NCBI GenBank assembly: GCA_039680665.1
Contig: JBDKSM010000138.1
Span: 18,135 to 82,134, forward strand
Source of the DNA: Syntrophaceae bacterium
Lineage (GTDB): Bacteria; Desulfobacterota; Desulfomonilia; UBA1062
Direction: 5' to 3'
Length of the DNA: 64,000 bases
Shown piece by piece: positions 3,895 to 30,521 of this stretch (the stretch's first letter is position 1; each line of letters begins with the position of its first letter). The notes under the pieces are model-generated. The model ran no database searches, was not told the DNA's origin, and worked only from the letters and a program-made list of their open reading frames with translations. The position numbers and the translations under genes are program-made.

Positions 3895-5262
3895 TTAGGT
3901 AAGTTTTTTGTGCCGGTAGCGGAAGGTATGGTGGTTCATGCCAAGCAGCTTGGCGGCCTGGGTCTCATTGCCGTGAGCCAGGGACAGGGCGGTGTCGATG
4001 TAATAGCGCTGTATATCGGCTTCCAGTTGTTCCAGATCGACGCCGGCGCTGGTCAGGACCGGCAATTCCACCGGGCCTACAGTGCGTAAGCTCCCCTTGT
4101 CCAGGCGCAGATCCTGGGACTCAAGTTCGGGCCCGGCGCCGAGGAGCACCGCCCGTTCGATCACGTTTTTGAGCTCGCGCACGTTGCCGGGCCAGGGGTA
4201 TTCCAGCAACGTTTGGCGCGCCTGGGGGCTGATGCCGGTAAAGGTCTTGTGAAATTTCTTGCCGAACTCCAGCAGGAAGTAGGTGGCCAAGGGGATGATA
4301 TCCGCGGGACGTTCGCCCAATGAAGGCAGGCGCACCGTGATGACCCCTAAGCGGAAATAGAGGTCCTGGCGGAAGGTCCCCTCCTCGATCATGTGGGCGA
4401 TATCCTTGTTCGTGGCCGAAACCACCCGGGTCTTGATTGAAAGAGGCTTAGTGCCGCCCACGCGGTAGAACTCGCCGTTTTCCAAAAAGCGCAGAAGCTT
4501 GGCCTGGGCTTCCACACTCAAGTCGCCCACCTCGTCTAAGAGCAGGGTCCCACCCGCGGCCTCTTCGATGAGACCCTTTTTGCCGCTTGGCGCCGCCCCG
4601 CTGAAGGCCCCTTTTTCATATCCGAAGAGCTCGCTCTCGATCAGGTGCGGCGGTATGGCGGCGCAGTTGAGCGTAATGAAGGGGCCCCGGAAATTGGGGC
4701 TGCGGTAGTGGATGGCGCCGGCGATCAGCTCCTTGCCGGTCCCGGTCTCGCCGACGATGAGCACCGGTGTGTCCGGGCTTAAGGCGATCTTGGTAATGAA
4801 CTCCATGAGATCCTGTAGGGCTTGGCTTTCGGCGATGAAGCAGGGCTGGTTCTCCTCCAGGTAGGCCTGCTGCAGCGCCTGCACCTCCTTGCGCAGGCGG
4901 ATGGTCTCGAAGGCGCGCCGGATGGTCGCCTCCAGGGCGTCCATGACAATGGGTTTGACCACATAGTCATAGGCGCCTTGCTTCATGGCGGAGATCACGG
5001 TGGCGGTGTCCTCATAGGCCGTGATCATGATCACCAGACCTTCCGGAGAGAGTTTTTTCATGCGGCCCAGGGCCTCGATGCCGTTCATGCCCGGTAGGCC
5101 GATGTCGAGGAGCACCAGATCGGGTTGGCCTCTCTGTATGGCCGCCAACGCCGCTTCGGCCGTGGCGAAGCTCTTGACGATGTAGGCGTCTTCCAGGGCC
5201 ATGGTGATGCCCTCCCGGATGGTCTGCTCATCATCCACGATGTAGATCGTATAGCCTACCAT
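3895..5262 (-). CDS. sigma-54-dependent response regulator (NtrC family: receiver + AAA+ + Fis HTH)
   Basis: Receiver domain (IVDDE...LVLLDIGLPGMNG). Walker A (GETGTGKE). GAFSGA motif. C-terminal HTH. Confidence 0.9.
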   Translation of the reverse strand: MVGYTIYIVDDEQTIREGITMALEDAYIVKSFATAEAALAAIQRGQPDLVLLDIGLPGMNGIEALGRMKKLSPEGLVIMITAYEDTATVISAMKQGAYDYVVKPIVMDALEATIRRAFETIRLRKEVQALQQAYLEENQPCFIAESQALQDLMEFITKIALSPDTPVLIVGETGTGKELIAGAIHYRSPNFRGPFITLNCAAIPPHLIESELFGYEKGAFSGAAPSGKKGLIEEAAGGTLLLDEVGDLSVEAQAKLLRFLENGEFYRVGGTKPLSIKTRVVSATNKDIAHMIEEGTFRQDLYFRLGVITVRLPSLGERPADIIPLATYFLLEFGKKFHKTFTGISPQARQTLLEYPWPGNVRELKNVIERAVLLGAGPELESQDLRLDKGSLRTVGPVELPVLTSAGVDLEQLEADIQRYYIDTALSLAHGNETQAAKLLGMNHHTFRYRHKKLT

Positions 5263-6417
5263 CTAAGTCCTCCCATGCGCCCGCGGGAGCTCAATAATGA
5301 AATCCGCTCCGCCCAAGGTGCTTTCATCCATGCGCAGATAGCCCTTGTGATCCGAGATGATCCGATGGCACAGCGACAAGCCGATGCCGGTGGAATCTGA
5401 TTTGGTGGTATAAAAGGGGTCGAAGATCTTGCCTCTTAGGTGCGGCGGGATGCCGGGCCCGGAGTCCGCTACCCTCACCACCACGTGCCCGGGCTCGATG
5501 GACGAGCTGATCGTGATGTGTTTGTCGCCGCCTGAGCCCTGCATGGCTTCGGCGGCATTAGTGATCAGGTTCAGGAGCACCTGTTCGATCATCTGTGGAT
5601 CAAGGCGGCAGATGCCTTTGCCCGGCGCGAGGTTCGACGTGAGCACGATCCCGGCCTTGCGCAGCGTCACCGCGGCCAGCCTAATGGCGTCCTCGATCGG
5701 GGCATTGATGTTGCACAGAATGAACTTCGGCTCGCTGGGCTTGGAAAAATCCATGATGCGCCGAATGACGGCGTCGATCCTGAGCGAGGCCTCCTGTATA
5801 TTGGTGATGATGTCCGGTACCTTGTGCAGGCCCTGGCCCGAATCGAGGAGCTTTTTGAGCATGGTCAAATAGATGTTGATCCCGGAGAGGGGATTGCGTA
5901 TCTCATGCGCCAGTCCGGCGGCCATCCGGCCCAGCGAGGCCATTTTGTCCTCCATGGAGATCATCTGCTCTAGTTTGCGGGCCCTGGTGATATCAATCAT
6001 GTTGAGCAGCAGGGCCTCGCGTCCATGGTACTGGATGATGCATCCCCGGCTCTGAATCCATTTCATTTGCGAGGGCGCCCCCTCTTTTTCCCAGCTCATG
6101 TAACGGAAGTCCACATCCACGTTGCGGATCTCTTCATGCCAGGCCATCGCGTACTTTTCTCTCACACGCTCGATATCGTCCGGGTGTACGCGCTCGAAGG
6201 GCAGCGGCTTGCCCAACATCGGCATGCTGCCCGCGATGCGCTGCTGCTCGGGGTTGAGATACACCACGCGGTAGTCCTGGATAATGCAAATGCCGGTCAG
6301 AGAATTCTCCACCATGTCCTGAAAAGGTTTGATCTGTTCCCAATACTCACTATTTTCGCACTGGGTACAGTCAAGCACCTTTTTTCGGCCGGATTTCCTC
6401 GATTTTTCAGCGGCCAT
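5263..6417 (-). CDS. cytoplasmic PAS-domain sensor histidine kinase
   Basis: H-box (LAHEIRNPLSGI). HATPase N/G boxes. No TM segments. Immediately upstream of the NtrC-like gene (stop/start adjacent). Confidence 0.85.
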   Translation of the reverse strand: MAAEKSRKSGRKKVLDCTQCENSEYWEQIKPFQDMVENSLTGICIIQDYRVVYLNPEQQRIAGSMPMLGKPLPFERVHPDDIERVREKYAMAWHEEIRNVDVDFRYMSWEKEGAPSQMKWIQSRGCIIQYHGREALLLNMIDITRARKLEQMISMEDKMASLGRMAAGLAHEIRNPLSGINIYLTMLKKLLDSGQGLHKVPDIITNIQEASLRIDAVIRRIMDFSKPSEPKFILCNINAPIEDAIRLAAVTLRKAGIVLTSNLAPGKGICRLDPQMIEQVLLNLITNAAEAMQGSGGDKHITISSSIEPGHVVVRVADSGPGIPPHLRGKIFDPFYTTKSDSTGIGLSLCHRIISDHKGYLRMDESTLGGADFIIELPRAHGRT

Positions 6418-6698
6418 CCATATCTCCCGTAGTTATAGCGGTCTTGGCGCCTAGAAGTGGATCTAACACAATCCGCCACCTCCCGGCAAGCTTCACGAAG
6501 ATACTCTGGGCCGGGCTATGGTTGTTTGCGCCTACACTAACCATGGCGCTCAACCGCAGCGATAGGTATTTGAATTTTGAAAAATGCAGATCGAATATTT
6601 GCGAGATTTTACGTCATCCTCACCAGATTTGTTTTCTCCTATGGCTATTATATATCTTTGTTTATTGGTCTGATTTCGACATAGGGTCTCCCCTGGAA

Positions 6699-6719
6699 AG
6701 CCCTGGCATGGATGGTGCA
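6699..6719 (+). promoter_or_regulatory. sigma-54 (-24/-12) promoter candidate
   Basis: cTGGCATggatgGTGCA. GG at 6705-6706 and GC at 6717-6718 with canonical 12-nt spacing, about 70 nt upstream of ATG 6790. Divergent from the sigma-54 two-component system. Confidence 0.6.
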
Positions 6720-6789
6720 CTAAGGCATCCAAGCGAGGGATGAACAAAGGAACTCATACAAGAAAACAAAACTAGAGGAGGATTCAGCA

Positions 6790-8154
6790 ATGATCAAAGA
6801 CATCATGCTCTACAACGATTTCGATGCGCGCAAGGAATATGACGTCATCGTCGTCGGTTCCGGTCCGGCCGGCGCCACTGTCGCCAAAAAAATGGCCAGG
6901 GCAGGGAAAAGCGTCCTGATCCTGGAGCGTGGCATGGAGATCAATTGGATTAAGCAGAACTCAGTGGCCCAGGGCCTGCAGCTCAAGAACTGTGGCTTAA
7001 GTTTCAGCAAGGAATTCAACTTCGTCGGCATCGGCAACGCCTATGGCGGAGCCACCAATGTGTACTGCGGCACGGCCGTGGAACCGGCCTACGGCATGTT
7101 CGACGAGGTGGGCGTTGATTTGAGGGCGGACGCCAAGGAGCTGGCCGATGAAATGTGGGTCGTCAAGGCCCCAGACAATATGGTGGGAGAAGGCAATATT
7201 CGCCTGCGCGACGCCGCCCGCGACTGCGGCTACAATTGGGACAATATCCAAAAGCATATCAACATGGATATGTGCATTCCCAACTGCAGTGAATGCATGC
7301 TCTCCTGCGGTCGCGGCGCCAAGTGGACGGCCCGCATCCCGGCCGACGACGCCATCCGGCACGGCGGCACCGTGCTCTGCAACACGCGCGTCACTAATGT
7401 CATCGTAGAGAACGGCAAAGTGACAGGAGTCCAGGGGAAACGTTTCGGCATGAACTTCGAGGCCCATGGCAAGAGCGTGGTCCTTGCGGCGGGTGTCTCC
7501 GACGTGGGGATCCTGAGGAAAGCCGGCATCGACGGCGCCGGTCGCACCTTTGCCTGCGACTTCCTGGTATTTACCGGCGGCGTGGTGGACGGCGTGACCT
7601 CCTACCGCTGCATGGACATGGCCGTGGGCACTTTGGAAGATTGGAACGACGGCTTTATCATGACCGAGCTCGGGCCCACCTGGGCCATGCACGCCATGAT
7701 GCTGTCCCTGGCGCCACAGAAGATCATGAGCCTGCTCAGAACATTTAAATACACCTGGATCATGACCAAGGTTCAGGATCAGCTCGCCGGGGAAATCTAT
7801 CCGGACAACAAGGTTTTCGGTTTCTCCAAGCCGGTCATGCCCGAAGACCAGCGGCGTATGAAGGCGGGTGACCAGAAGGCGCGTAATATCCTGAAGAAGA
7901 TGAAGGCCGATAACATCGTCACCTTGCCCCATTGCGGCGCACACCCTTGCGCCACGGCCAAGATCGGCGATGTGGTGGACACCAACCTCGAGACCGAGGT
8001 GAAGAACCTCTATGTCTGCGACGCCAGCGTCTTCCCGCGCGCCATGGGTCTGCCGGTGGTATGGACCGTGGCCGCTTTGGGCAATCGCCTGGCCAAGCAT
8101 ATGGTTGCCACCGAAATCATGGGCGGCAAGGCCACCAAGGCAAAAAATAAATAA
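6790..8154 (+). CDS. GMC-family FAD oxidoreductase
   Basis: N-terminal DVIVVGSGPAGATVA Rossmann motif. C-terminal GMC signature region (HPCATAKIGDVVD...VCDASVFP). GAGGAGG RBS. Confidence 0.8.
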   Translation: MIKDIMLYNDFDARKEYDVIVVGSGPAGATVAKKMARAGKSVLILERGMEINWIKQNSVAQGLQLKNCGLSFSKEFNFVGIGNAYGGATNVYCGTAVEPAYGMFDEVGVDLRADAKELADEMWVVKAPDNMVGEGNIRLRDAARDCGYNWDNIQKHINMDMCIPNCSECMLSCGRGAKWTARIPADDAIRHGGTVLCNTRVTNVIVENGKVTGVQGKRFGMNFEAHGKSVVLAAGVSDVGILRKAGIDGAGRTFACDFLVFTGGVVDGVTSYRCMDMAVGTLEDWNDGFIMTELGPTWAMHAMMLSLAPQKIMSLLRTFKYTWIMTKVQDQLAGEIYPDNKVFGFSKPVMPEDQRRMKAGDQKARNILKKMKADNIVTLPHCGAHPCATAKIGDVVDTNLETEVKNLYVCDASVFPRAMGLPVVWTVAALGNRLAKHMVATEIMGGKATKAKNK

Positions 8155-8346
8155 CAGGGCCTTGAATGTACGGCTGGCGTCCATGCGGGCAAGGACGCAT
8201 GGACGCCAGTCCGCTGGCCACCGGCCTATAAACATCCGCACTTGAATTGAGGACAGGGGCGCGGGCTGCCGAGAATCACCGCTGTAGTGGATGCGGGTAT
8301 GGAGGTTCAATTCGCCCGTAATATTTTGAGGAGGGTTATTAATCCT

Positions 8347-9594
8347 ATGGGAAAGAGGATGCATTGGCGCTGTAAAAATAATAGGATAAGATTCGGAGTA
8401 TTGGTTTGCCTGGTTGGGGTTGCGATTCTGGCTTTGCAATCACCCGCGCTGGCATATGTTTATAAATGGAATGCCGAGCCCCCCATGCTCGCCAACGACC
8501 CGGAATGGAATAAAGTAAAGACCCTGTGGCGCAATCATGCCGGAGGCAAGAATCTGGACGAGATCATCGTCATTCTCACCAATCTCAAAAGCAAATATCC
8601 GGATAAAATCGAGGTCTACTTATGTTTGGCCAAGGCGTATAATCTACACGCCTGGTATTTCGGCAAGGACAAACGCGGATATTTCGAAAAAGGGGAGATG
8701 TGTGCCGTCCAGGCCTGTAAAATGCAGACTGCCAACCCATATGCCATCCGCGCACTCGTCGAGGCATTGGTATTTAACCGCGACAGGAACTATATCTTTT
8801 CCCATTACGGCGAGTATCTCAAATCCGTGGCGCCCATGCAAGAAGCCTACGGTGAGGTGCTGCCGGAGATGGCGCAATACCCGGAATGGAACGCCTTCCT
8901 GCCGCTTTGGCAGGCACGGATCGATATGGAAAAGGCCAAGGCCGCGGCGGCGCTGGCCGAAAAAATGGCCCAGGCCCACCCCCAGGATGCCTTGGCCCAA
9001 GTCTGGGCCGCGCGGGTGTACTATTACATCGGCGAGGTTAATACCTCACTGAAGGAGCATGATAAGAAGGCCATCCCCAATTACGAAAAAGGCATTGCCT
9101 ATGCCGGAAAAGCGTTGAAGCTCGATCCCCAATACGTGCCCGCGAATCACTGGTATGTGTTGAATCTGGCGCGGTCCATCCAGTTTACAAGTTTGATGAA
9201 CAAGGCACGCTATCTCATGGATCTCTTGCACCCCGCGCTTTTATGCGCCAGAGAGGATGTCGGTTACTTCTACTTCAATATATTGGACATCGTCGGCACC
9301 ATGATCACCTACGGCGGCTGGGTAACGGAGAAAGGCATGAAGATGGTTGGCATCAGCGTGGACATGATCACGAATGGCCTTGAGCTGGCCGAGATGCTTC
9401 ACCCGGATTACGATTACCTGCCATATTGCCACGCCGATGTTCTGGCTTACAAGGGCAAGAAGAAGGAGGCCATGGCGATACTCGAGAGGGTTCTGGCCCG
9501 CAATCCGGATATTAACAATCTGATCCCGGAGAATCATAACTATCAGCGCGAGGCCAGGATGCTTTATGAGGCCATACAGCAGGGCAAGCGTTAA
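8347..9594 (+). CDS. secreted hypothetical protein, TPR-like helical repeats
   Basis: Start chosen at ATG 8347 (GAGGAGGG RBS). Signal peptide (MGKRMHWRCKNNRIRFGVLVCLVGVAILALQSPALA). Helical-repeat composition. No recognisable catalytic motif. Confidence 0.5.
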   Translation: MGKRMHWRCKNNRIRFGVLVCLVGVAILALQSPALAYVYKWNAEPPMLANDPEWNKVKTLWRNHAGGKNLDEIIVILTNLKSKYPDKIEVYLCLAKAYNLHAWYFGKDKRGYFEKGEMCAVQACKMQTANPYAIRALVEALVFNRDRNYIFSHYGEYLKSVAPMQEAYGEVLPEMAQYPEWNAFLPLWQARIDMEKAKAAAALAEKMAQAHPQDALAQVWAARVYYYIGEVNTSLKEHDKKAIPNYEKGIAYAGKALKLDPQYVPANHWYVLNLARSIQFTSLMNKARYLMDLLHPALLCAREDVGYFYFNILDIVGTMITYGGWVTEKGMKMVGISVDMITNGLELAEMLHPDYDYLPYCHADVLAYKGKKKEAMAILERVLARNPDINNLIPENHNYQREARMLYEAIQQGKR

Positions 9595-9915
9595 TACGGA
9601 TGTCATAAGGAGAGTTTGCTGAATTGCTCAATCATCAGGGCCCGGATGCAACAGGCCGGTATGTCCGGTATGTTTGCTCTGGGCCTTGGTGGTATTTCGC
9701 TCAATCGGTCTTGATCTCTAGGAGTTGAACGAGAACTTTCTGTTTTCGATGATTCGTATGATGATAGGGCCGGGTCGTTGCTAGATGGATTTGAGTTTTT
9801 GGTAATTGCAATTTGCAATATTTCGATGATTCCCCCCCGCTCTTAAGGATTGCCGATCATGATTGCCCATAACCAATTAATATTTTGGAGTAAATATATT
9901 CCCATCTCCCGCACG

Positions 9916-9936
9916 AGCCCTGGCATGAATGGTGCT
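9916..9936 (+). promoter_or_regulatory. sigma-54 (-24/-12) promoter candidate for ech operon
   Basis: aGCCCTGGCATgaatgGTGCt. GG at 9922-9923 and GC at 9934-9935. About 60 nt upstream of echA. 19 of 21 nt identical to the element at 6699-6719. Confidence 0.6.
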
Positions 9937-9995
9937 ATGGGGGTGTAGGTGCCGCTGAAGGCACGGATGCATTCTTAGGAAAAGGGGTACGCACT

Positions 9996-11903
9996 ATGAC
10001 AGCGCTGTTATTTTTGATACTCTTTCCACTCATTCCGGCCGTGCTGCTGTTGGCCGTCAAGCATGACGGCGCGCGCGGTGTCATCACGCGCCTGGCCGTG
10101 GGCGTCATTGTCGCTGCCTCCATCGGGCTGCCCTGGCTCATGAATGCGGGCCTGCCCGTCTATTTCAGCTTCGATGCCGAGTGGGCCGGCAAGGCTATGT
10201 TTTTCATCGAGATCTTCCTGGCCGGGCTGATATTTTTCTTGGGTCTCAAATACAAGCACTATCTGACGTCAGTCCTGATCACCCTGCAGTTCGCGTTGAT
10301 GGCCTGGTATGAGTTCTCCCTGTCAGGTACGGTTACCATTCAACAGCATCTCTTCCTCGACCGCCTCTCGCTCATTATGGCGATCATTATCGGGGTCATC
10401 GGCGGACTCATCTGTGTTTATGCCCTGGGTTACATGCGCGATTTCCATGACCACCACCGCGAAATGCCGGATCGCAGACCATATTTTTTCTTCGTCATGT
10501 TCGTCTTCCTTTCCGCCATGTTCGGGCTGGTCTTCGCCAACAACCTGGTGTGGCTGTTCTTCTTCTGGGAAGTCACAACCTTATGCTCCTTCTTGTTGAT
10601 CGGCTATACCAAGACGGCTGAGGCCACCGCCAATGCCTTCAAGGCCCTGATCATGAACCTGGGCGGCGGCCTGGCCTTTGCCGGAGCCATCGTCTGGTTG
10701 GCTTGGTCGGGCGGTCCCCTTGAGCTCAAGGCCCTTATCGCCTCGCCCCAGGCTATGGTCATGATCCCGGTGGCGCTGCTGTGCTTCGCCGGCATCACCA
10801 AATCGGCCCAGATGCCGTTTTCCTCCTGGCTCTTAGGCGCCATGGTGGCCCCTACGCCGACCTCGGCCCTGCTGCATTCCAGCACCATGGTCAAGGCCGG
10901 TGTTTATCTGGTCCTGCGTCTGGCGCCGGTCCTGGCTGGCAGCTATGTCGGCGCCGCGGTGGCCTTGGTGGGCGGCGTCACCTTTCTGCTGGCGGCCTTC
11001 ATCGCCATCTCGCAGAGCAACGCCAAGAAGGTGCTGGCCTATTCGACCGTATCCAACCTGGGCCTGATCGTCACCTGCGCCGGCGTCGGCACCGCGGCCG
11101 CGGTCTGGGCCGGGATCTTCCTGATCATCTTCCACGCCGTAGCCAAGTCGCTGCTCTTCCTGTGCGTGGGCACGCTGGAGCACCGCATCGGCAGCCGTGA
11201 TATCGAGGACATGGACAACATCCTGATCAAGATGCCCACCCTGGCCGTCATGGTGCTGATCGGCATCGGCGGGATGTTCGTGGCCCCCTTCGGCATGCTC
11301 ATCAGCAAGTGGGCCGCCATCCGGGCCTTTGTCCATGCCGGCCCCGTCATGAGCCCGATCCTGATCCTGCTCCTGGCCTACGGCAGCGCGGTCACGGTCT
11401 TTTTCTGGACCAAGTGGATGGCCAAAATCATGGAGGTCAGCGTGCTGCGCACCGGCCATGATCCGCTGGAAGACGCCATATCGTATGACGAGCGCTTCGC
11501 CCACTGGGCGCATACGGTGCTCACAATCGGCGTCTGCCTGGCCTTCCCGCTCGTATCCAGCCAGCTGGTCGAGCCGTATGTCGCCGAGGTCTTCGGGCAG
11601 GCCGCGGGCATGGAGGCGGGCAATCTCATGCTGACCGGCATCATGGTGGCGCTGATCCTGATCCTGCCGACAATCGCCTTCCCGTATCAGAGGAAGGCCG
11701 GGTATGTCTTCGGCACCGCCTACATGGCAGGACTCAATGAGTATCCGGACCGCATGTATGACGGATCACTCTCGCAGCGCCGCAAGGCCACCTTAAAAAA
11801 TTACTACCTCGCCGGAATCTTCGGCGAAGAAAAATTCATGAAAGTCGGGGTGTTGGCAGGGACCTGCCTGCTGGCACTCATGCTGGGAGCGGCACTCTTA
11901 TGA
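9996..11903 (+). CDS. echA: energy-converting [NiFe] hydrogenase membrane subunit EchA (NuoL/HyfB-like antiporter subunit)
   Basis: 635-aa polytopic membrane protein with NuoL/MnhA-type motifs. First gene of a 6-gene complex-I-like hydrogenase operon. Confidence 0.8.
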   Translation: MTALLFLILFPLIPAVLLLAVKHDGARGVITRLAVGVIVAASIGLPWLMNAGLPVYFSFDAEWAGKAMFFIEIFLAGLIFFLGLKYKHYLTSVLITLQFALMAWYEFSLSGTVTIQQHLFLDRLSLIMAIIIGVIGGLICVYALGYMRDFHDHHREMPDRRPYFFFVMFVFLSAMFGLVFANNLVWLFFFWEVTTLCSFLLIGYTKTAEATANAFKALIMNLGGGLAFAGAIVWLAWSGGPLELKALIASPQAMVMIPVALLCFAGITKSAQMPFSSWLLGAMVAPTPTSALLHSSTMVKAGVYLVLRLAPVLAGSYVGAAVALVGGVTFLLAAFIAISQSNAKKVLAYSTVSNLGLIVTCAGVGTAAAVWAGIFLIIFHAVAKSLLFLCVGTLEHRIGSRDIEDMDNILIKMPTLAVMVLIGIGGMFVAPFGMLISKWAAIRAFVHAGPVMSPILILLLAYGSAVTVFFWTKWMAKIMEVSVLRTGHDPLEDAISYDERFAHWAHTVLTIGVCLAFPLVSSQLVEPYVAEVFGQAAGMEAGNLMLTGIMVALILILPTIAFPYQRKAGYVFGTAYMAGLNEYPDRMYDGSLSQRRKATLKNYYLAGIFGEEKFMKVGVLAGTCLLALMLGAALL

Positions 11904-12760
11904 AAACCATCGCCATCGGTATCGCGTATGTCATACTGGCCCCGGTCATCGGCGGGCTGTTGGTCGGACTGGACCGCATCATCTCGGCGCGTATGCAACG
12001 CAGGGTCGGCCCGCCCATCCTGCAGCCGTTCTATGACATATTCAAGCTCCTCCAGAAGAAGACCGTGGTGGTCAACCGCCTGCAGAACCCTGCTATTTTC
12101 TGCCACCTCTTTTTCATGATCGCCACGGGCTTCTTGTTTTTCGAGGGCAGTGACATCCTTCTGATCATCTTCGTGCTCACGCTTTCCGGGGTCTTCCTGG
12201 TCCTGGCCGCCTCGGCCTCGGGATCGCCCTTCTCGCATATCGGCGCCGAACGCGAGCTCATTCTCATGACGGCCTACGAGCCCATGGTGCTCATGATGCT
12301 GGTCGGCATCTACAAGGTCACGGACAGCTTCCACTTCTACGCCATATTGGAGAGCGCTAAGCCCCTGATCGTTTACCTGCCCGGGATCTTTGTGGGCTTC
12401 CTTTATATCCTGACCATGAAGCTCAGGAAATCGCCCTTCGATATCTCCTATTCGCATCACGCCCACCAGGAGCTGGTCAAGGGCATCATGTCGGATATGT
12501 CGGGTAAGTCCATCGCCATGGTCGAGATCGCGCACTGGTATGAGAACGTCTTCCTCTTAGGCCTTGTCTATCTCTTCTTCGGCTTCTCGCCCGTGCTGGG
12601 TATCGCGGCCGTGATCCTGACCTATGTATTCGAGATCCTTGTTGACAATACCTTCGCCCGTTTCCGCTGGGAGCTCGCCTTCCGCTCGGCCTGGCTGGTA
12701 GCCCTGGTGCTGGGCGGCGGGAACCTGATCGCACTGTACGCCCTGATGGGAGGAGCATGA
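11900..12760 (+). CDS. echB: Ech hydrogenase membrane subunit EchB (NuoH/HycD-like)
   Basis: NuoH-like N-terminus (ARMQRRVGPPILQPFYDIFKLL). 4-nt overlap with echA. Confidence 0.8.
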   Translation: MKTIAIGIAYVILAPVIGGLLVGLDRIISARMQRRVGPPILQPFYDIFKLLQKKTVVVNRLQNPAIFCHLFFMIATGFLFFEGSDILLIIFVLTLSGVFLVLAASASGSPFSHIGAERELILMTAYEPMVLMMLVGIYKVTDSFHFYAILESAKPLIVYLPGIFVGFLYILTMKLRKSPFDISYSHHAHQELVKGIMSDMSGKSIAMVEIAHWYENVFLLGLVYLFFGFSPVLGIAAVILTYVFEILVDNTFARFRWELAFRSAWLVALVLGGGNLIALYALMGGA

Positions 12761-12761
12761 T

Positions 12762-13193
12762 ATGGCTTACTTCAAGAAATCACCCTGGCTCATTCATTAC
12801 GACGGGTCGAGCTGCAACGGCTGCGACATCGAGGTGCTGGCATGCCTGACGCCCTTATACGATGTCGAGCGTTTCGGCATCATCAACACCGGCAATCCCA
12901 AGCATGCCGATATCTTCCTGGTCACGGGCTCGGTCAATCAGCAGAACGTGGATATCATCCGCAACATCTATAACCAGATGCCCGAGCCCAAGGTGGTGAT
13001 CGCCGCCGGCATCTGCGCCTGTTCGGGCGGGATCTTCGCCGAGTGTTACAACGTCATGGGCGGCATCGACAAGGTCATCCCGGTGGACGTGTATGTCCAG
13101 GGCTGCGCGGTGCGGCCCGAGGCCATCATCGACGGTGTCGTCAAGGCTTTAGCCATCTTAGAAGAACGCTACGCGCGTGCAAAGGCGGCATAA
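12762..13193 (+). CDS. echC: Ech hydrogenase small subunit EchC (NuoB-like)
   Basis: NuoB-type Cys ligands (SCNGC...GxCAxSGG). 143 aa. Confidence 0.8.
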   Translation: MAYFKKSPWLIHYDGSSCNGCDIEVLACLTPLYDVERFGIINTGNPKHADIFLVTGSVNQQNVDIIRNIYNQMPEPKVVIAAGICACSGGIFAECYNVMGGIDKVIPVDVYVQGCAVRPEAIIDGVVKALAILEERYARAKAA

Positions 13194-13195
13194 TT

Positions 13196-13567
13196 ATGAA
13201 CGCTAAGCGAACCATGATCAAAATGGAAAACCAGGAACTCCTCAAGGCGGTTGAGGGTTACTGCGCGCAGGGGTACCGCCTCGTCCAGATCTGTTGCGTC
13301 AAGGAAACCGAAGGACTTGTGCTCCACTACACCTTTGACAAAGACTACGACCTCATCGATCTGAGCATCAGCATCGCCGAAGGAGCCCCGGTCCCGAGCA
13401 TCACGACGATTTACCCCTGCGCCTTTCTCTACGAGAACGAGATCCACGATCTCTTTGGGCTGACCATCCAGGACATCAACGTGGATTTCAAGGGGCTGCT
13501 CTACAAGGTAACGGTGGCCAGACCGTTCAATCCAGCCGTCGACCCAGCGGCCCGCGAGAGGAGCTAG
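13196..13567 (+). CDS. echD: Ech hydrogenase subunit EchD (NuoC-like)
   Basis: ATG at 13196 follows echC stop by 2 nt. NuoC-like fold by eye. The listed ORF 13043-13567 is an artefactual 5' extension. Confidence 0.7.
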   Translation: MNAKRTMIKMENQELLKAVEGYCAQGYRLVQICCVKETEGLVLHYTFDKDYDLIDLSISIAEGAPVPSITTIYPCAFLYENEIHDLFGLTIQDINVDFKGLLYKVTVARPFNPAVDPAARERS

Positions 13568-13570
13568 GCC

Positions 13571-14665
13571 ATGTCATCCGTCTCATCGTCCAAACATACC
13601 GTCATCCCCTTCGGACCCCAGCATCCGGTGCTGCCCGAACCCCTGCACTTTGATTTCGTGCTGGAGGATGAAAAGATTGTCGATGTCATCCCCTCCATCG
13701 GGTATGTCCACCGCGGGCTGGAGATCCTGGCCAGCAAAAAGGAATTCACCGAGTTTGTCTATGTCGCCGAGCGCATATGCGGCATCTGCAGCTTCATCCA
13801 CGGCATGGGGTACTGCGAGGCCCTGGAGGAGATCATGCACATCGAGGTGCCGGGGCGCGCCCAAAACCTGCGGGTGATCTGGAGCGAGCTTTCCCGCGTG
13901 CATAGCCACCTCCTCTGGTTGGGCTTGGCCGCGGACGCCTTCGGATTCGAGAACCTTTTCATGCAGGCCTGGCGGGCCCGTGAAGGCGTGCTCGACATCA
14001 TCGAGGAGACCACCGGCGCACGTGTCATCTTTGGGGCCTGCAAGATCGGAGGCGTACGCAAGGATATCGATGGCGACACGCTTTCACGTATCGCGGATGT
14101 CCTTAACAAGCTGCAAAGCGAGGTCCAGGCGGTCTGTGACATCTTCCTGAAGGACAGCTCGGTGAAACACCGCCTATGCGGAGTGGGCCTCCTCTCTCGG
14201 GAAGATGCCTATGCCTTGGGCGCGGTGGGACCCATGCTGCGCGCCAGCGGGCTGGCCTATGATTGTCGCAAGCTGGGCTATGCCGCCTTTTCCGACATCA
14301 ATTTTTCCATCGTGACCGAGACGGACGGCGACTGCTACGCACGCTGTAGCGTGCGTATCCGCGAGATCTACCAGTCCTTCGACATCATCCGCCAGACCAT
14401 AGCCAAGATGCCGGGCGGCGAAATCTGCGCCAAGTTCAAGGGCGTGCCGGACGGTGAAGCGCTGGTACGCTTCGAACAGCCGCGCGGCGAAGTGGTCTAT
14501 TACGTCAAGGCCAACGGCACCAAGTTTCTGACGCGCTTCCGCGCCCGCACCCCCACCTTCGCCAATATCCCGGCCATGATGCAGGTGCTGAAAGGCGCAA
14601 ACTTCGCGGATGTTCCCACCATCGTCCTTACCATCGACCCGTGCATCAGCTGTACCGAGAGGTGA
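13571..14665 (+). CDS. echE: Ech [NiFe] hydrogenase large subunit EchE (NuoD-like)
   Basis: N-terminal RICGICSFIHG and C-terminal DPCISCTER Ni-Fe CxxC ligand pairs. Confidence 0.85.
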   Translation: MSSVSSSKHTVIPFGPQHPVLPEPLHFDFVLEDEKIVDVIPSIGYVHRGLEILASKKEFTEFVYVAERICGICSFIHGMGYCEALEEIMHIEVPGRAQNLRVIWSELSRVHSHLLWLGLAADAFGFENLFMQAWRAREGVLDIIEETTGARVIFGACKIGGVRKDIDGDTLSRIADVLNKLQSEVQAVCDIFLKDSSVKHRLCGVGLLSREDAYALGAVGPMLRASGLAYDCRKLGYAAFSDINFSIVTETDGDCYARCSVRIREIYQSFDIIRQTIAKMPGGEICAKFKGVPDGEALVRFEQPRGEVVYYVKANGTKFLTRFRARTPTFANIPAMMQVLKGANFADVPTIVLTIDPCISCTER

Positions 14666-14668
14666 ACA

Positions 14669-15019
14669 ATGGCATTTTTCAGCATGGCAGGATCAACACT
14701 AGCGAATCTCTTCAAGAAACCGGCCACGCGCCTGTATCCGGCGGTCGAGCCTAAATGCTCGGCCATCACCCGCGGCCACGTGGCTATTGAGGTAAACCAG
14801 TGCGTCTTCTGCGGCATCTGCGGTAAGAAGTGCCCCACGCTGGCCATCGAAGTGAACCGCGAGGCCAAGACCTGGGAGATTCAGCGGCTCAAGTGCATCG
14901 CCTGCGCCAATTGCTGCGAGGCCTGCCCCAAGCACTGCCTGCGCATGGACAGCGCTTATTCCCAGCCGGTGTCGTCTTTGGAAAAAGAGCTCGCGCACGA
15001 GGTGGCCAGGGGTGCATGA
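14669..15019 (+). CDS. echF: Ech hydrogenase 2x[4Fe-4S] ferredoxin subunit EchF (NuoI-like)
   Basis: Two CxxCxxCxxxCP motifs. Confidence 0.8.
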   Translation: MAFFSMAGSTLANLFKKPATRLYPAVEPKCSAITRGHVAIEVNQCVFCGICGKKCPTLAIEVNREAKTWEIQRLKCIACANCCEACPKHCLRMDSAYSQPVSSLEKELAHEVARGA

Positions 15020-15443
15020 ATTCGCACTAGCAGCCGAGATCGTCGGCATCGCCGCTGACAAGGCCGCGCAAGGAGGCCCTGCCGGTGTGCCGCATATCGA
15101 GCTTATCATCGACGAGATGAGCGGCTGCTCTGCCCAAAGGCTGGGCCAGTATTTCGAGTTCCTCTCCGAGGAAGCCGGTCTTGCCGGCGCCAGGCTTACG
15201 GTAACCGCTACCAAGGCGCGCATGGAATGTTTGAGCTGCGGCACTGCCTTCGAGCGTCGGCGCTTTGCGCTCACCTGCCCTGTCTGTATGGGAACGGCGC
15301 GGCCAAGCCCGGCCGCCCAAACCCTGATCATCGATGATTGCGAAATTCTAACACACACAGCCAACCCTCTTTTCCCCTTTGTTTCACGGCTAGAGCAAAA
15401 GAAGGTCGCCCATCCAACCCCCACCCCACAAGGGTTAAAATAG
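15012..15443 (+). CDS. hypA: hydrogenase nickel-insertion protein HypA (GTG start, C-terminally extended)
   Basis: MHEFALAAEIV N-terminus. CxxC...CxxC zinc finger (CLSCG...CPVCMG). Overlaps echF by 8 nt. Confidence 0.75.
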   Translation: MHEFALAAEIVGIAADKAAQGGPAGVPHIELIIDEMSGCSAQRLGQYFEFLSEEAGLAGARLTVTATKARMECLSCGTAFERRRFALTCPVCMGTARPSPAAQTLIIDDCEILTHTANPLFPFVSRLEQKKVAHPTPTPQGLK

Positions 15444-15459
15444 GGCGACCTTCTTTTGC
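15395..15459 (+). repeat. 17-bp perfect inverted repeat / long stem-loop spanning the hypA stop
   Basis: GCAAAAGAAGGTCGCCC (15395-15411) and GGGCGACCTTCTTTTGC (15443-15459) with a 31-nt loop, followed by T-rich sequence. Confidence 0.6.
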
Positions 15460-15543
15460 GACCGCCATGATCTGGAAGGGGAACGCAAAGACCAGTAATA
15501 CGGCGATAGGGTTGGAAAGAACCTGATACTAAGAGGAGGAAAC

Positions 15544-17496
15544 ATGGGTAAAGGCTATATGGGAAAGATCCTCACCGTTGATCTTGATAACGCGACCTGG
15601 ACGGAAGAACAGGTAAGCGATGAGATCTATGAGCAGTATCTTGCCGGGCAAGGGCTGGGCGCCTACATTCTGTATAACCGCATCCCGGCCGGGGCCGATC
15701 CGCTGGGACCCGACAACCTGCTGGGCTTCATGGCCGGACTCCTGACCGGCACCGGCAGCCTCTTTTCCGGACGCTGGACCGTGGTGGGCAAATCACCCTT
15801 GACCGGCGGCTGGGGCGACGCCAATTGCGGCGGCCAGTTCGCGCCGGCCATCAAACGCTGCGGTTATGACGGTATCTTCTTCAAGGGCATCAGTGCCAAG
15901 CCGGTCTATCTGCTGATCGAACACGGCAAGATCGAGCTCAAGGACGCTACCGGGCTGTGGGGCAAAGACGCCGTGGAGACCGAGGAAATCCTCATGGAAG
16001 AACACGGCACGGATGTCCGCGTGGCCACCATTGGGCAGTCGGGAGAAAACCTCTCGCTTATCTCCGGCATCTGCAACGACCGCGGCCGCATCGCCGCCCG
16101 CTCGGGTTTGGGCGCGGTCATGGGTTCCAAGAAGCTCAAGGCCGTAGTCTTGAAAGGGTGCCTGCGCATCGGGACGGATAACGATTACGAGATCAAGCGC
16201 ATCAGCCAGAAATGCAACCGCTGGGTGCAGTTCCATCTTCCCAAATGGCCTGGGTTCTTGAACGCCTACCTGGGCGCGGGCATAGGGCTTCTCCCCTCCC
16301 AGATGGCCATCGACGGCTTTCTCTACAAGGTTCTGAACCGGATCTGGGGCACCAGCAGCATGAACCAGATGTCGATCGGCATGGGCGACTCGCCTATCAA
16401 GAACTGGAAGGGCAGCAACGTGGACTTTGGACTGAAGAAATCGAAGACCGTCAATGCCGATGTATTCACTAAATGCGAGACCGTGAAGTATCATTGCTAT
16501 TCCTGCCCCCTGGGCTGCGGCGGGATCTGTTCGATCAGCGGCAAATATACCGAGACCCACAAGCCCGAATACGAAACCGTGCTGGCTTTAGGCGGACTTG
16601 TCATGAATGAAGACGCCGACAGCATCTTCTACCTCAATGAGGTTCTCAACCGCGCCGGTATGGATACCATCTCGGCTGGCGGCACCGTGGCCTATGCCAT
16701 TGAATGCTTTGAAAAGGGCATCCTTACCCGCGAAGATACCGGCGGCCTTGAGCTCACCTGGGGTAACACCGAGGCTATCGTGGCCCTAATCGAAAAGATG
16801 GTAAAACGCGAGGGCATCGGCGAAATTCTGGCCGACGGCTCCAAGGCGGCCGCCAAAAAGATCGGTAAAGGGTCCATCGACTACGCCATCCAGGCCGGAG
16901 GCCAGGAACCGGCCATGCACGACGGCCGCGGAGATCCGGGCTTCGGTCTGCATTACTCGGTCGAGCCCACCCCGGGACGGCATACGATTGGGTCCCAGCT
17001 GTATTATGAAATGTTCCAGCTCTGGAAGGCGGTCAAGGGGTTGCCCAAGATCAAACCTCTGTATCACAAGGACGAGAAATACGTCGCGGATGAGGGCAAG
17101 ACTCTGCAGGCCGCGGCCTGCAGTAAGTACATGAACATCGTCAATGCCTGCGGCATGTGTCTGTTCGGGGTCTTCCTGGGCATCAAACGCATCCCGACCT
17201 TTGACTGGATCAATGCCGCCACGGGCTGGGACATGAGCCCTAACGACTACATGGATATCGGTGAGCGTATCCAGACCATCAAGCAGGCCTTCAATGTCAA
17301 GCACGGGATCGAGCCCAGGGAGTACAAGCTCTCCGATCGGGCCTTAGGTCTTCCGCCGCTTACCGAAGGCGCCAACAAGGGGCGCACCGTCCCGATCGAC
17401 AAGCTCAGGCACGATTACTGGCAGCACTTCGATTGGGACCCGCAGACCGGCAAACCGACCGAGAAGGCCCTCAAGCGTCTGGGCATTCAATCCTAA
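15544..17496 (+). CDS. aor: tungsten-type aldehyde:ferredoxin oxidoreductase
   Basis: Typical AOR N-terminus (MGKGYMGKILTVDL). 650 aa. AGGAGG RBS. Confidence 0.85.
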   Translation: MGKGYMGKILTVDLDNATWTEEQVSDEIYEQYLAGQGLGAYILYNRIPAGADPLGPDNLLGFMAGLLTGTGSLFSGRWTVVGKSPLTGGWGDANCGGQFAPAIKRCGYDGIFFKGISAKPVYLLIEHGKIELKDATGLWGKDAVETEEILMEEHGTDVRVATIGQSGENLSLISGICNDRGRIAARSGLGAVMGSKKLKAVVLKGCLRIGTDNDYEIKRISQKCNRWVQFHLPKWPGFLNAYLGAGIGLLPSQMAIDGFLYKVLNRIWGTSSMNQMSIGMGDSPIKNWKGSNVDFGLKKSKTVNADVFTKCETVKYHCYSCPLGCGGICSISGKYTETHKPEYETVLALGGLVMNEDADSIFYLNEVLNRAGMDTISAGGTVAYAIECFEKGILTREDTGGLELTWGNTEAIVALIEKMVKREGIGEILADGSKAAAKKIGKGSIDYAIQAGGQEPAMHDGRGDPGFGLHYSVEPTPGRHTIGSQLYYEMFQLWKAVKGLPKIKPLYHKDEKYVADEGKTLQAAACSKYMNIVNACGMCLFGVFLGIKRIPTFDWINAATGWDMSPNDYMDIGERIQTIKQAFNVKHGIEPREYKLSDRALGLPPLTEGANKGRTVPIDKLRHDYWQHFDWDPQTGKPTEKALKRLGIQS

Positions 17497-17506
17497 GGAG
17501 GCGCAC

Positions 17507-17959
17507 ATGTCGTATTCCATAACCGAAATCTGCACCGGCTGCGGGGCCTGCGTCCGGGTCTGCCCGGCTCAGGCCATCAGCGGTGAAAAGAAAAAACCCC
17601 ACACCATCAAGGCGGAGTTGTGCATCGACTGCGGTGCCTGCGGACGCGTCTGCCCCAAGGGCGGTATCCGGAATAGCATCGGGCATACCTGCGCGGCCGT
17701 CAAACGCACCCTTTGGCCAAAGCCCCAGATCGACAACAAGACCTGCATGTCCTGCAGTATCTGCATCGACGCCTGCCCGGCCGGTTGTCTGGCGCTCTCC
17801 GGCGCCTCCGGCAAGGACCCCCACGGCCACCCCTATCTGGCCGATGAAAAGAAGTGCATCGCCTGCGGTTACTGCGCCGTCGAATGCCCGGTCATGGCCA
17901 TCATCATGGCCGTCCCCCAACCGGAGCCGGCGCAAGCGGCAGCCCCGGAGAGCGTATAG
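17507..17959 (+). CDS. poly-ferredoxin (four [4Fe-4S] motifs), putative AOR electron acceptor
   Basis: Four CxxCxxCxxxCP motifs in 150 aa. Confidence 0.8.
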   Translation: MSYSITEICTGCGACVRVCPAQAISGEKKKPHTIKAELCIDCGACGRVCPKGGIRNSIGHTCAAVKRTLWPKPQIDNKTCMSCSICIDACPAGCLALSGASGKDPHGHPYLADEKKCIACGYCAVECPVMAIIMAVPQPEPAQAAAPESV

Positions 17960-18367: not shown

Positions 18368-19603
18368 CTAGGCTTTGAGCGATCTGATAACCGCCATGCA
18401 ATCCTTTTTGCACATGATTTTCGGCACGGGATAGGTGGGGTTGCATTCAAGCAATGCGCGCTCCGCGATGAGCGGGATGTCGGCGTCCTTGATGCAATCG
18501 AACTTGTTCGGGATGTTCATTCTCTGGTTGAGGGCCTTGACGGCTTCGATAAAAGCCTTGGCCTTCGCTGCATTGCTCATGCCGGGTTTGGAAACGCCGA
18601 TCAGTTCCGCAAGCTGGGCCAGGGGCTTGTGCGCCGCTTCGCCGTACCATTCCAGGACATAGGGCATGATAACCGACATGGCCAGTCCATGCGGAACGTT
18701 ATACATGCCGCCGAGGTTGTGGCCGATGCCGTGCACGTAACCGACCCCGCCCCGTGTGAACGTATACCCCGCGTAATATGCGGCCCGCAGCATCTGTCCG
18801 CGCGCTTCAAGGTCTTTGCCGTCTTTATAGGCTTTCTCAATGTTGTTGAAGATCATTTCAACGGCCAGAAGGGCTTTTACCGTGGTATCCGTACTATTAT
18901 AGAACTTGCCGATATAGGACTCGACCGCATGCGTCAAGGCATCCATGCCCGTTGTCGAGGTAATGTGAGGCGGAAGGCCGACGGTCAGCACCGGGTCAAG
19001 CACCGCGTAGCGCGGACGGATGACCGGGTCGGTGATTGGAGATTTTTCATGTGTCTGAGGGTTCGATACGACCGCCGCGATGGTGGTCTCGGAACCCGTA
19101 CCGGCGGTGGTCGGAACCGCGAAGATCGTCGGAGGGAAAAGCGATCCCATTTTAATGGCGGGAAGCATGACCTTGAACAGCCCCCGCATCTGGTTGACCG
19201 ATCGCGCCGGGCGGGCAACCCGTGCGCCCACGCCTTTGGCGCAATCCATCGGGGATCCGCCGCCGAAGGCTATGATTGCTTGGCAGTTGTTGGCATGATA
19301 GATTTTCAGGGCGGCTTCTATGTTGTCGAAGGTGGGATTGGGTTGCACCTGATCATAGAGCGCATACTGAACACCTGCAGCTCCGAGGGCCTCAAAAAGT
19401 GAATCGAGCAGGTGCAGGCTCATAAGGACAGGGTCGGTGACTACCAGAACTCTGGTGAAGCCTTTATTTTTGATGACCGCGGGTAGTTTCTTTATGCTAT
19501 CCGCCCCATCGATGATTTCGGGTTCGATCCAGGGCAGAACCTTCATTCCCAGACCCATGACGAATTGATAGATGCGATAATACACTTTTTTTAAAATCCA
19601 CAT
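18368..19603 (-). CDS. iron-containing (group III) alcohol dehydrogenase
   Basis: Fe-ADH family signature regions (GGGSPMDCAKG; His-rich metal site GxxHxxxH). GGAGGT RBS. Confidence 0.85.
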   Translation of the reverse strand: MWILKKVYYRIYQFVMGLGMKVLPWIEPEIIDGADSIKKLPAVIKNKGFTRVLVVTDPVLMSLHLLDSLFEALGAAGVQYALYDQVQPNPTFDNIEAALKIYHANNCQAIIAFGGGSPMDCAKGVGARVARPARSVNQMRGLFKVMLPAIKMGSLFPPTIFAVPTTAGTGSETTIAAVVSNPQTHEKSPITDPVIRPRYAVLDPVLTVGLPPHITSTTGMDALTHAVESYIGKFYNSTDTTVKALLAVEMIFNNIEKAYKDGKDLEARGQMLRAAYYAGYTFTRGGVGYVHGIGHNLGGMYNVPHGLAMSVIMPYVLEWYGEAAHKPLAQLAELIGVSKPGMSNAAKAKAFIEAVKALNQRMNIPNKFDCIKDADIPLIAERALLECNPTYPVPKIMCKKDCMAVIRSLKA

Positions 19604-20025
19604 GATAATGACCTCCGATTTTTATTTATTTTTACCGGTTATAACGGCAGAGCGGTTATTGTTACAACCTAATTCTTGTATCCGTACACGTGCCATAAAA
19701 AGCAGCGGCGTTATATCCTGTCGTAAACCGAAGAGCCCCATTCCGGACGGCATCGAGCGCATGGTCCGTTGCCCCGAAACTCTCTTAGAAGGGCAACCGT
19801 GCGTATACAGTAGTAACTTGTGCATGTTCCTCATCCTTCCTTGTGCAAGGCACAAGGTGCTCCTTTTGTTTGTGGCTTACTTGGTCGGGTAAAAAGCATG
19901 AAGTGTGCCATGCCTTGGCATATTTTATCGCTAATCATATCAATAAAATGGAGCAGGCATGGTTGCTCCAAAGGGCGTGAAATAGAAATATTTCAATGCC
20001 TGTTTTGAAATATCTCTATGGAGCA

Positions 20026-30366: not shown

Positions 30367-30521
30367 CATACCAAAAGCCTTATCGGATAATTTAGAAAGA
30401 TGCAATAGCATAATTATGAGAATTATATTTATCTTGAAAAGTGGCCGAATGGATGTTAACAAATCATCTGGTATATGGCTGAGCCAATACGAGAAATGAT
30501 GGATGAGAAAGGACGGCTAGG

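Follow-up and report, generated by a model that had tools for sequence, protein, structure and literature searches.

Several described systems resemble the regulatory circuit that we propose for a 64-kb stretch of DNA from a Syntrophaceae bacterium (hereafter the window), in which a kinase-regulator gene pair, two near-identical sigma-54-like promoter cores (P1 and P2) and a third such core (P3) lie among genes for a flavoprotein of the GMC family, an Ech hydrogenase and an Fe-type alcohol dehydrogenase (Fe-ADH). In E. coli, the hyc and hyf operons for group 4 [NiFe] hydrogenases, which are related to Ech, undergo sigma-54 activation by FhlA and HyfR from upstream activating sequences. Sigma-54 control of hydrogenlyase components has likewise been documented (PMC12316311). 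FhlA differs from the regulator in the window in that it is a one-component, formate-binding protein that lacks a receiver domain, answers to another signal and has other co-regulated genes. Against the NCBIfam FlhA model, the window regulator scores 229 bits, with a cutoff of 830.

E. coli's AtoSC system is alike in architecture, with a regulator composed of receiver, AAA+ and Fis-type helix-turn-helix (HTH) domains and a kinase-regulator operon that lies beside a catabolic target operon. At atoDAEB, AtoC binds a pair of neighboring 20-bp sites that lie upstream of the sigma-54 promoter (PMC3118216). These sites, GCTATGCAGAAATTTGCACA and GCTATGCAGAAAATTGCGCA, are AT-rich near-palindromes of about 20 bp located more than 100 nucleotides (nt) upstream of the promoter (PMC3118216), an arrangement like that of the candidate upstream activating element (UAS) described below. 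The two systems differ, however, in several respects. The window kinase is a soluble protein with no equivalent of the membrane and HAMP part of AtoS, and the candidate regulator sites are of a TTCGAAA type, whereas those of AtoC are of the TGCAGAAA type. Moreover, the candidate targets in the window comprise hydrogenase, alcohol dehydrogenase and flavoprotein genes rather than acetoacetate catabolism, and there are three modules instead of one.

Among anaerobes, the sigma-54 response regulator DVU2394 of Desulfovibrio vulgaris controls the adh-hdr/flx operon (PMC3333781, PMC4641369). DVU2394/DVU2395 and their target operon (DVU2405-2397) are comparable, by description, in that a sigma-54 regulator of a deltaproteobacterial anaerobe has an Fe-ADH and energy-metabolism genes as targets. 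The DVU2394 site, though, is a direct repeat present in D. vulgaris strains only (PMC3333781), and Ech is not a target. In Clostridium beijerinckii, sigma-54 (SigL) and the dedicated activator AdhR control Fe-type alcohol dehydrogenase genes (PMC7017808). That organism is a Firmicute, its activator has another architecture and no hydrogenase is described among the targets; this likeness, too, is by description.

Results

Two sigma-54-like cores and their conservation

From the sequence, we consider it likely that a single circuit serves three promoters in the window, the kinase-regulator pair next to P1 being the predicted controller of P1, P2 and P3. The cores P1 and P2 are contained in the 21-mers AGCCCTGGCATGGATGGTGCA (6699-6719) and AGCCCTGGCATGAATGGTGCT (9916-9936), both on the + strand. 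An earlier note on this DNA had described these 21-mers as near-identical and sigma-54-like, and its coordinates and identity (19/21, i.e., 2 mismatches in 21 positions) were borne out. The 21-mer occurs at only two places in the window when up to three mismatches are allowed; the expectation from shuffles is 0.03, and none of 100 shuffles had two matches. Each core reads TGGCAT-N5-GTGCW, with exactly 10 nt from GG to GC at both sites; the note had likewise called the spacing exact. In P1, TGGCAT is at 6704-6709 and GTGCA at 6715-6719, with a predicted start near 6730; in P2, TGGCAT is at 9921-9926 and GTGCT at 9932-9936, with a predicted start near 9947. Both cores are intergenic and on the sense strand, with 71 nt from the 3' end of P1 to the ATG of the GMC gene (6790) and 60 nt from the 3' end of P2 to that of echA (9996), compared with the 60-70 nt given previously. 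A sigma-70 scan of the three intergenic regions that contain P1, P2 and P3 found no sigma-70-like promoter.

Written as TGGCATGGATGGTGCA (P1), TGGCATGAATGGTGCT (P2) and TGGCACACTTCATGCT (P3), each core has one mismatch to TGGCAY-N5-TTGCW. The window has 8 matches to that consensus with no more than one mismatch, which is not above the 5.1 expected from shuffles. Since a match to the consensus is not significant in itself, the case for P1 and P2 rests on context and conservation. The same count favors the explanation that the cores are a product of chance or base composition and that no sigma-54 promoters are present, but we find this hardly credible given that the 21-mer pair is unique in the window, is conserved across species and co-occurs with an upstream element derived independently of it. 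It is very probable that P1 and P2 are genuine sigma-54 promoters and that each has an upstream activator site of its own; P1 would drive the GMC gene and the gene downstream of it, and P2 would be the ancestral ech promoter.

The conservation is seen in three related loci (L104, L050 and L107) that have the kinase gene directly opposite echA, no counterparts of the GMC gene and its neighbor, and a single promoter module. The L104 proteins are 94% (activator), 87% (kinase) and 95% (EchA) identical to those of the window, and the corresponding values for L050 and L107 are 90%, 77-80% and 78-91%. In the single intergenic region of these loci, CCCTGGCATGAATGGTGCT precedes the ATG of echA by about 60 nt. 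The P2 core is identical to that of L104 at 22 of 23 positions and to those of L050 and L107 at 20 of 23, and its distance from the start codon of echA is unchanged. When L104 is compared with L050, identity is 91% for the promoter core, 80% for the AT-rich upstream element, 76% for the kinase-proximal part and 70% for the 5' untranslated region (5'UTR), compared with 43% for the spacer between element and core. This footprint indicates that the ech promoter core and its upstream element are under selection. A metagenome scan with the core CCCTGGCATGRATGGTGCW was discarded as a means of finding regulon members, as only two of its 34 matches (L104 and L107) were relevant; the others were without the UAS and the neighboring genes and are probably due to chance.

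The kinase-regulator pair

The regulator gene (3895-5262, - strand) encodes a sigma-54 enhancer-binding response regulator that ends in ...LLGMNHHTFRYRHKKLT and has matches to Response_reg (2.6e-28), Sigma54_activat (2.5e-63) and HTH_8 (1.6e-7). At residue 218 it has GAFSGA, a variant of the GAFTGA loop that is also listed for a D. vulgaris activator (PMC4641369). It thus has the receiver, the AAA+ domain with a GAFTGA-type loop and the C-terminal Fis-type HTH of the NtrC-family two-component regulators, and its gene is the only one for a sigma-54 AAA+ activator in the window. The gene for a PAS-type histidine kinase with HisKA and HATPase_c domains (5263-6417, - strand) forms an operon with it, and the kinase translation has no hydrophobic segment or transmembrane stretch; near its N-terminus it has the sequence CTQC. 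The earlier note was right in describing a complete cytoplasmic PAS kinase and NtrC-family activator encoded divergently from P1. The best NCBIfam match of the regulator is AtoC (402.8 bits; cutoff 714), and that of the kinase is AtoS (197 bits; cutoff 646), to which it aligns over AtoS residues 275-610 with its N-terminal half on the PAS region. Because both equivalog cutoffs are missed, the pair is AtoSC-like in architecture and not an AtoSC orthologue.

A paired upstream element that follows the regulator

Orthologous kinase-activator pairs, 52-68% identical to that of the window, occur in many metagenome-assembled genomes of Desulfobacterales that have no ech genes adjacent to the pair. 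Most of these loci have a TGGCAY-N5-NTGCW core 140-500 nt downstream of the activator gene, and about 85-130 nt upstream of the cores is the UAS, which consists of two AT-rich, TTTCGAAAWTTTTCTAAA-like sequences of about 18 nt with their centers 22 bp (two helical turns) apart. A matrix was built from 23 distinct sites from 14 other genomes with orthologous pairs, with the window and its close relatives excluded. In orthologue loci that had not been used for training, all pairs scoring at least 30 bits (16/16) adjoin a TGGCAY-N5-NTGCW core, and loci with activators of 40-45% identity (L051-L084) have no UAS pair of at least 30 bits. The UAS is associated with this regulator family.

When the 64 kb were scanned for paired sites, the four best pairs started at 19981 (26.6 bits), 9789 (22.5 bits), 30381 (21.8 bits) and 6568 (21.8 bits), and the next candidate scored 12.3 bits. 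The pair at 6568-6608 (UAS1; sites 6568-6585 and 6589-6606) begins 136 nt before the P1 -24 element, and that at 9789-9829 (UAS2; sites 9789-9806 and 9811-9828) begins 132 nt before the P2 -24 element and aligns with the UAS of L104, L050 and L107. When the -24/-12 matches of the window are ranked, three of the top five, namely P1, P2 and P3, have a UAS pair that starts between -110 and -136, a coincidence for which a rough estimate of chance is 2e-6. With a 45-column UAS model, nhmmer also ranked the P1, P2 and P3 regions first, and the paired-site matrix scan was the more discriminating of the two methods.

The upstream sites that had been suggested before the UAS was defined fared less well. 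The earlier note had pointed to a GCGCC...GGCGC palindrome, to a CCGGTATGT tandem (9656-9673) and to AATTGCAATTTGCAATATT (9804-9822). The first lies at 6528-6549, in a stretch that is missing from the relatives, and has no UAS match; the second corresponds to a weak terminator-like hairpin (9655-9669, + strand) 3' of the gene downstream of the GMC gene, is not conserved and has no UAS match either. The third overlaps UAS2 at the site 9811-9828, and to that extent the suggestion stands. The palindrome at 6528-6549 is formed by GCGCC-N12-GGCGC interleaved with ATGGTT...AACCAT, and it sits within about 50 nt that are absent from the kinase-ech regions of the relatives.

The HTH of the window regulator (…GNETQAAKLLGMNHHTFRYRHKKL) has the recognition helix MNHHTFRY, which is identical in all loci that have a TTCGAAA-type UAS. 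In two loci the helix is altered (to MNYSTFRY in L021 and to FKYSTFRY in L027), and there TGCA-type palindromes occupy the same position instead. The sequences that go with these helices are CTGCAAATTCTTGCAG and CTGCAATTTTTTGTAG (L021, about 11750-11800; L027, about 10985-11025), and both resemble the E. coli AtoC site.

An alternative is that the AT-rich repeats are operators of another protein, such as a Rex-like repressor, IHF or a nucleoid protein, and that the link to the regulator is coincidental. The UAS core GAAA-N2-TTTC does resemble the Rex box TTGTGAA-N4-TTCACAA, and hydrogenase, adh and CO dehydrogenase genes are typical redox-regulated genes. No UAS site, however, matches the canonical Rex box within three mismatches, and we rejected the identification of the UAS as a Rex box on this ground. 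Furthermore, the sites are always paired 22 bp apart and occupy a fixed position relative to sigma-54 cores (about -85 to -135) rather than lying over them; they adjoin orthologues of this activator, are absent at loci with distant activators and change with the recognition helix. We therefore regard control of these sites by such a protein as very improbable.

The same combination of UAS and sigma-54 core is found elsewhere, with up to three copies near the regulator gene, as in L011 (7097-, 12347+ and 17047+) and L016 (7473+, 8882+ and 19086-), and also in L015 (4744+) and L020 (2233-). In other Desulfobacterales, the genes that follow the module encode a CO dehydrogenase (Prismane family, 575 bits), HdrC-like Fe-S proteins, a NifX-like protein, single-domain response regulators and universal stress proteins.

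The ech operon and a third module at adh

Downstream of P2, echABCDEF-hypA spans 9996-15443 (+ strand), with echABCDEF at 9996-15019. The six subunits EchA-F are encoded in the order antiporter-like, NuoH-like, NuoB-like small, NuoC-like, NuoD-like large and 2x[4Fe-4S], with Pfam matches to Proton_antipo_M, NADHdh, Oxidored_q6, Complex1_49kDa/NiFeSe_Hases and Fer4, and to Complex1_30kDa at 13214-13567. EchE has the NiFe ligand motifs RICGICS (residue 70) and DPCISCTER (C-terminus), as expected of a group 4 Ech hydrogenase. Genes for an aldehyde:ferredoxin oxidoreductase (aor; 15544-17496) and a poly-ferredoxin (fdx; 17507-17959), both assigned by Pfam and on the + strand, follow hypA, and the order ech-hypA-aor-poly-ferredoxin recurs in two further loci, L122 and L123. 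Judging by the short gaps, 9996-17959 is probably one transcription unit from P2.

A hairpin directly follows the predicted start in the ech 5'UTR (window 9938-9977; L104, about 6205-6235; L050, about 452-478 on the - strand). Its stem changes appear to be compensatory (GGUGCC/GGCAC in the window versus GGGGCC/GGCCCC in L050). The folding energies of the ech leader hairpin were not significant against shuffles, and a scan of the leaders against Rfam found no known RNA.

The Fe-ADH gene (18368-19603, - strand; Fe-ADH match 2e-45) is convergent with the ech cluster, and its upstream region contains the best UAS pair of the window, UAS3 (19981-20021; 26.6 bits), which is also the best nhmmer match. 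UAS3 starts 110 nt upstream of P3 (TGGCACACTTCATGCT; 19895-19910, - strand), a core located about 290 nt upstream of the adh ATG. Orthologues of P3 are present in L122 (8918) and L123 (5911), with the core 83-90 nt before the adh ATG. In L122, where the alcohol dehydrogenase is 91% identical to that of the window, the best UAS pair scores 28.5 bits and the core is TGGCACGCTTCCTGCT; in L123 (93% identical), the values are 27.4 bits and TGGCATGCTCTATGCT. In both of these loci, the UAS pair and the sigma-54 match that score highest across the entire locus are neighbors, with the pair about 110 nt upstream of the match. The module was not found in more distant adh loci. These data support the P3 module, which the earlier note had missed, as a third predicted target of the circuit. 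The adh leader is about 290 nt long in the window versus about 85 nt in the relatives, with roughly 200 nt of extra sequence that includes a hairpin at 19839-19857.

An inserted segment between the kinase gene and ech

Alignment of L104 with the window by blastn gave two collinear blocks, in which L104 4518-5988 corresponds to window 5000-6474 (88%) and L104 6175-6864 to window 9914-10600 (87%). Between the blocks, the window has 3439 nt (6475-9913) and L104 has 186 nt (5989-6174), and the two cannot be aligned. The breakpoints are sharp (6474/6475 and 9913/9914). The left ancestral block ends with kinase-proximal intergenic DNA (6418-6474) that is collinear with L104, and the P2 core is inside the right ancestral block. 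The 3.44-kb segment (6475-9913, + strand) has no counterpart in the relatives and holds UAS1, P1, the GMC gene and its neighbor, UAS2 and the P2 spacer. Because the relatives lack the two genes and the segment takes the place of 186 nt in L104, P1 belongs to the inserted segment. No transposase or flanking repeats were seen around the segment in the window.

A first three-way alignment had suggested that the kinase-ech intergenic region was simply duplicated in situ. We rejected this possibility on the grounds that, in a blastn comparison within the window, similarity between the kinase-side and ech-side regions is limited to the 20-nt core and a weak 17/23 match. Two recent events were also rejected, namely a local duplication and a deletion in L104 through recombination between the repeats, as neither copy of the UAS and spacer is about 85% identical to that of L104. 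Third codon positions are 84-86% identical between L104 and the window (a neutral divergence of about 15%), and yet the UAS-promoter spacers are 37-40% identical and the UAS 65-66%; hence the segment did not arise by recent local duplication, nor was L104 derived by a recent deletion. The ech 5'UTR of the window is 80% conserved in L104. From these comparisons, the segment looks like one that was imported or replaced, with its right end supplying a new UAS to the ancestral P2 core.

This arrangement raises the question of whether both promoters are active. It is possible that only one of them works, either because transcription of ech comes from P1 by read-through, with P2 decaying as a relic, or because P1 is a non-functional by-product of the insertion. 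The sole terminator-like feature after the GMC gene and its neighbor is the weak hairpin mentioned above, and UAS1 and UAS2 both score below the single copy in the relatives. On the other hand, P2 is nearly identical to the sole promoter of L104 and is followed by a conserved 5'UTR, P1 retains GG and GC at the exact spacing with a UAS at the correct distance, and echA is preceded by a complete module within 400 nt of non-coding DNA. We consider it distinctly unlikely that either promoter is idle and favor the view that both function.

The two genes that P1 would drive are a GMC gene (6790-8154, + strand) and a gene for a secreted TPR-like protein (8347-9594, + strand). The former encodes a divergent, cytoplasmic GMC-family oxidoreductase of the flavin adenine dinucleotide (FAD)-dependent type, 454 amino acids (aa) in length, which NCBI names 'GMC oxidoreductase [Syntrophaceae bacterium]'. 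Both GMC domains are above threshold (GMC_oxred_N, 40.4 bits with a cutoff of 23; GMC_oxred_C, 40.3 bits with a cutoff of 24.6), although the protein is short and has only weak terminal matches to solved GMC enzymes. Residues 164-175 or thereabouts contain the motif CIPNCSECMLSC (CX3CX2CX3C), and the best GMC-type matches among solved structures are chains of bacterial FAD-glucose dehydrogenases (6a2u and 8hdd). There are hints here of an Fe-S cluster and of a dehydrogenase rather than an oxidase, as would be expected in an anaerobe. The TPR-like protein (415 aa) has weak TPR matches in Pfam. Its gene most likely starts at 8347, which gives a signal peptide (...LQSPALA|YVY); the homologue in locus L119 has 417 aa.

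Homologues of the GMC protein in L119 and L121 are 79% and 76% identical, respectively. In L119, the GMC-TPR pair adjoins two Fe-ADH genes and an IS1595 transposase gene at the end of the locus, and the region upstream of the GMC gene is AT-rich and sigma-70-like and has neither a UAS nor a sigma-54 core. We thus rejected sigma-54 control as an ancestral trait of the GMC-TPR pair, as L119 lacks the module. L121, on a short contig with little sequence ahead of the gene, has the sigma-54-like core TTGCACGGTATTGCAT at 57-72, about 62 nt before the ATG, with TG in place of the invariant GG. A different arrangement is found in L120 (5892; JGI 3300027536), where a 52%-identical GMC paralogue and a second GMC gene lie downstream of a gene for a MimR-N/GAF/PAS sigma-54 activator, with the perfect core TGGCATATAAGTTGCA upstream of the GMC genes. 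L001, a locus from that same sample, does not differ from the window over the region compared, and JGI 3300005144 is another sample in which this genome occurs. L120 may represent a second, independent instance in this community of GMC flavoproteins under sigma-54 control.

Elsewhere in the window, 32070-33938 (- strand) encodes a 622-aa protein that consists almost entirely of ankyrin repeats (Ank_2, 341 bits), which is unusual for a free-living deltaproteobacterium.

Discussion

The earlier note had predicted that one enhancer-binding-protein circuit controls both the GMC-TPR pair and ech. This prediction is supported by the conserved ech core, the UAS model that was derived independently of the window, the outcome in held-out loci and the identical recognition helix, and we would extend it to adh. 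We propose that the soluble PAS kinase (5263-6417) phosphorylates the AtoC-like response regulator (3895-5262), which would then bind the dual sites through its Fis-type HTH with the recognition helix MNHHTFRY, oligomerise, loop to closed complexes of sigma-54 RNA polymerase and open them with ATP. P2 would serve echABCDEF-hypA and probably aor and fdx, P3 would serve the Fe-ADH gene, and P1 the genes for the GMC flavoprotein and the secreted TPR protein. P2 would be the ancestral promoter of the locus, and the 3.44-kb segment would have placed the GMC-TPR pair between the kinase gene and ech, leaving a UAS and a promoter on each side.

Several observations weigh against this model. The -12 element of P1 and P2 is GTGC, not TTGC, and rpoN is absent from the window, although we infer that the genome has one from the intact Sigma54_activat/GAFSGA regulator gene alone. 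Taken singly, the UAS matches did not reach significance in nhmmer (E = 0.57 to about 10), so the argument from the UAS rests on rank, position and conservation. UAS1 and UAS2 score about 22 bits, compared with about 33 bits for the single copy in the relatives. A fourth UAS-like pair (30381-30421; 21.8 bits) has no proper sigma-54 core nearby, as no GG-N10-GC core was found at the expected distance on either strand; thus the UAS matrix is not perfectly specific. This pair may be a chance match, or it may be an activator site with another role. It sits between a DUF5692 gene (29156-30211, - strand) and a gene for a GntR/FCD regulator (30522-31229, + strand). Finally, deltaproteobacterial genomes carry dozens of activators, up to 50-69 in related bacteria (PMC12316311), and a paralogue with the same recognition helix could share these sites or take them over.

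This last point leads to the alternative that the three promoters are real but that at least one of them is activated by a paralogous enhancer-binding protein encoded elsewhere, with the adjacent regulator controlling only part of the set, such as the ancestral ech promoter. In its favor are the large number of activator genes, the weaker matches of UAS1 and UAS2, and the three modules each in L011 and L016, which point to multi-target regulons and make paralogues plausible. Against this, the type of UAS tracks the MNHHTFRY helix that the adjacent regulator possesses, the ech module and the kinase-regulator operon diverge directly from each other in three relatives, and the 64 kb contain no other sigma-54 activator gene. 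We judge such a division of labor unlikely, though less so than the other alternatives considered above, and retain control of all three promoters by the adjacent pair as the preferred model.

What might the kinase sense? The occurrence of the module ahead of CO dehydrogenase, HdrC-like, response-regulator and stress-protein genes in other bacteria suggests that the system senses reductant or energy status rather than a single substrate. The target set in the window (Fe-ADH, aldehyde:ferredoxin oxidoreductase, Ech and a nickel chaperone) fits alcohol oxidation coupled to H2 release. Oxidation of an alcohol to the aldehyde and on to the acid would give NADH and reduced ferredoxin, and the reduced ferredoxin would be disposed of as H2 via Ech. 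For the syntrophic oxidation of ethanol by Pelobacter, an alcohol dehydrogenase together with a tungsten-dependent acetaldehyde:ferredoxin oxidoreductase has been documented (PMC4275255). We tentatively go one step further, with less than even confidence, and propose that a module of about 170 bp (dual UAS, spacer and core) was copied or imported together with a foreign GMC-TPR pair, such that a horizontally acquired gene pair was wired into an existing regulon while ech was kept connected, and that the kinase senses reductant or alcohol/aldehyde status.

The circuit is of a fairly ordinary and well-supported kind, namely sigma-54 control of the AtoC/FhlA type, and it leaves the current view of sigma-54 regulation unchanged. 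What it provides is a defined regulon model, with one kinase-regulator pair, an element of 2 x 18 bp and three promoters, for an uncultured bacterium of the Syntrophaceae type known from anaerobic digester or sediment metagenomes. Since the motif and the MNHHTFRY helix apply to dozens of Desulfobacterota genomes, the regulon annotation can be propagated to them. The insertion illustrates how a gene pair that enters a locus can gain sigma-54 control while the downstream operon keeps a module of its own. The proposed circuit ties the oxidation of alcohols and aldehydes to H2 production by Ech, the step that sets interspecies H2 transfer. If the more tentative proposal of an imported module is also correct, a soluble PAS kinase and an AtoC-like activator would govern ferredoxin-linked energy metabolism across the Desulfobacterota, in a regulon that spans Ech, aldehyde:ferredoxin oxidoreductase and Fe-ADH and, elsewhere, CO dehydrogenase and Hdr-like proteins, and the kinase would set the syntrophic output of H2.

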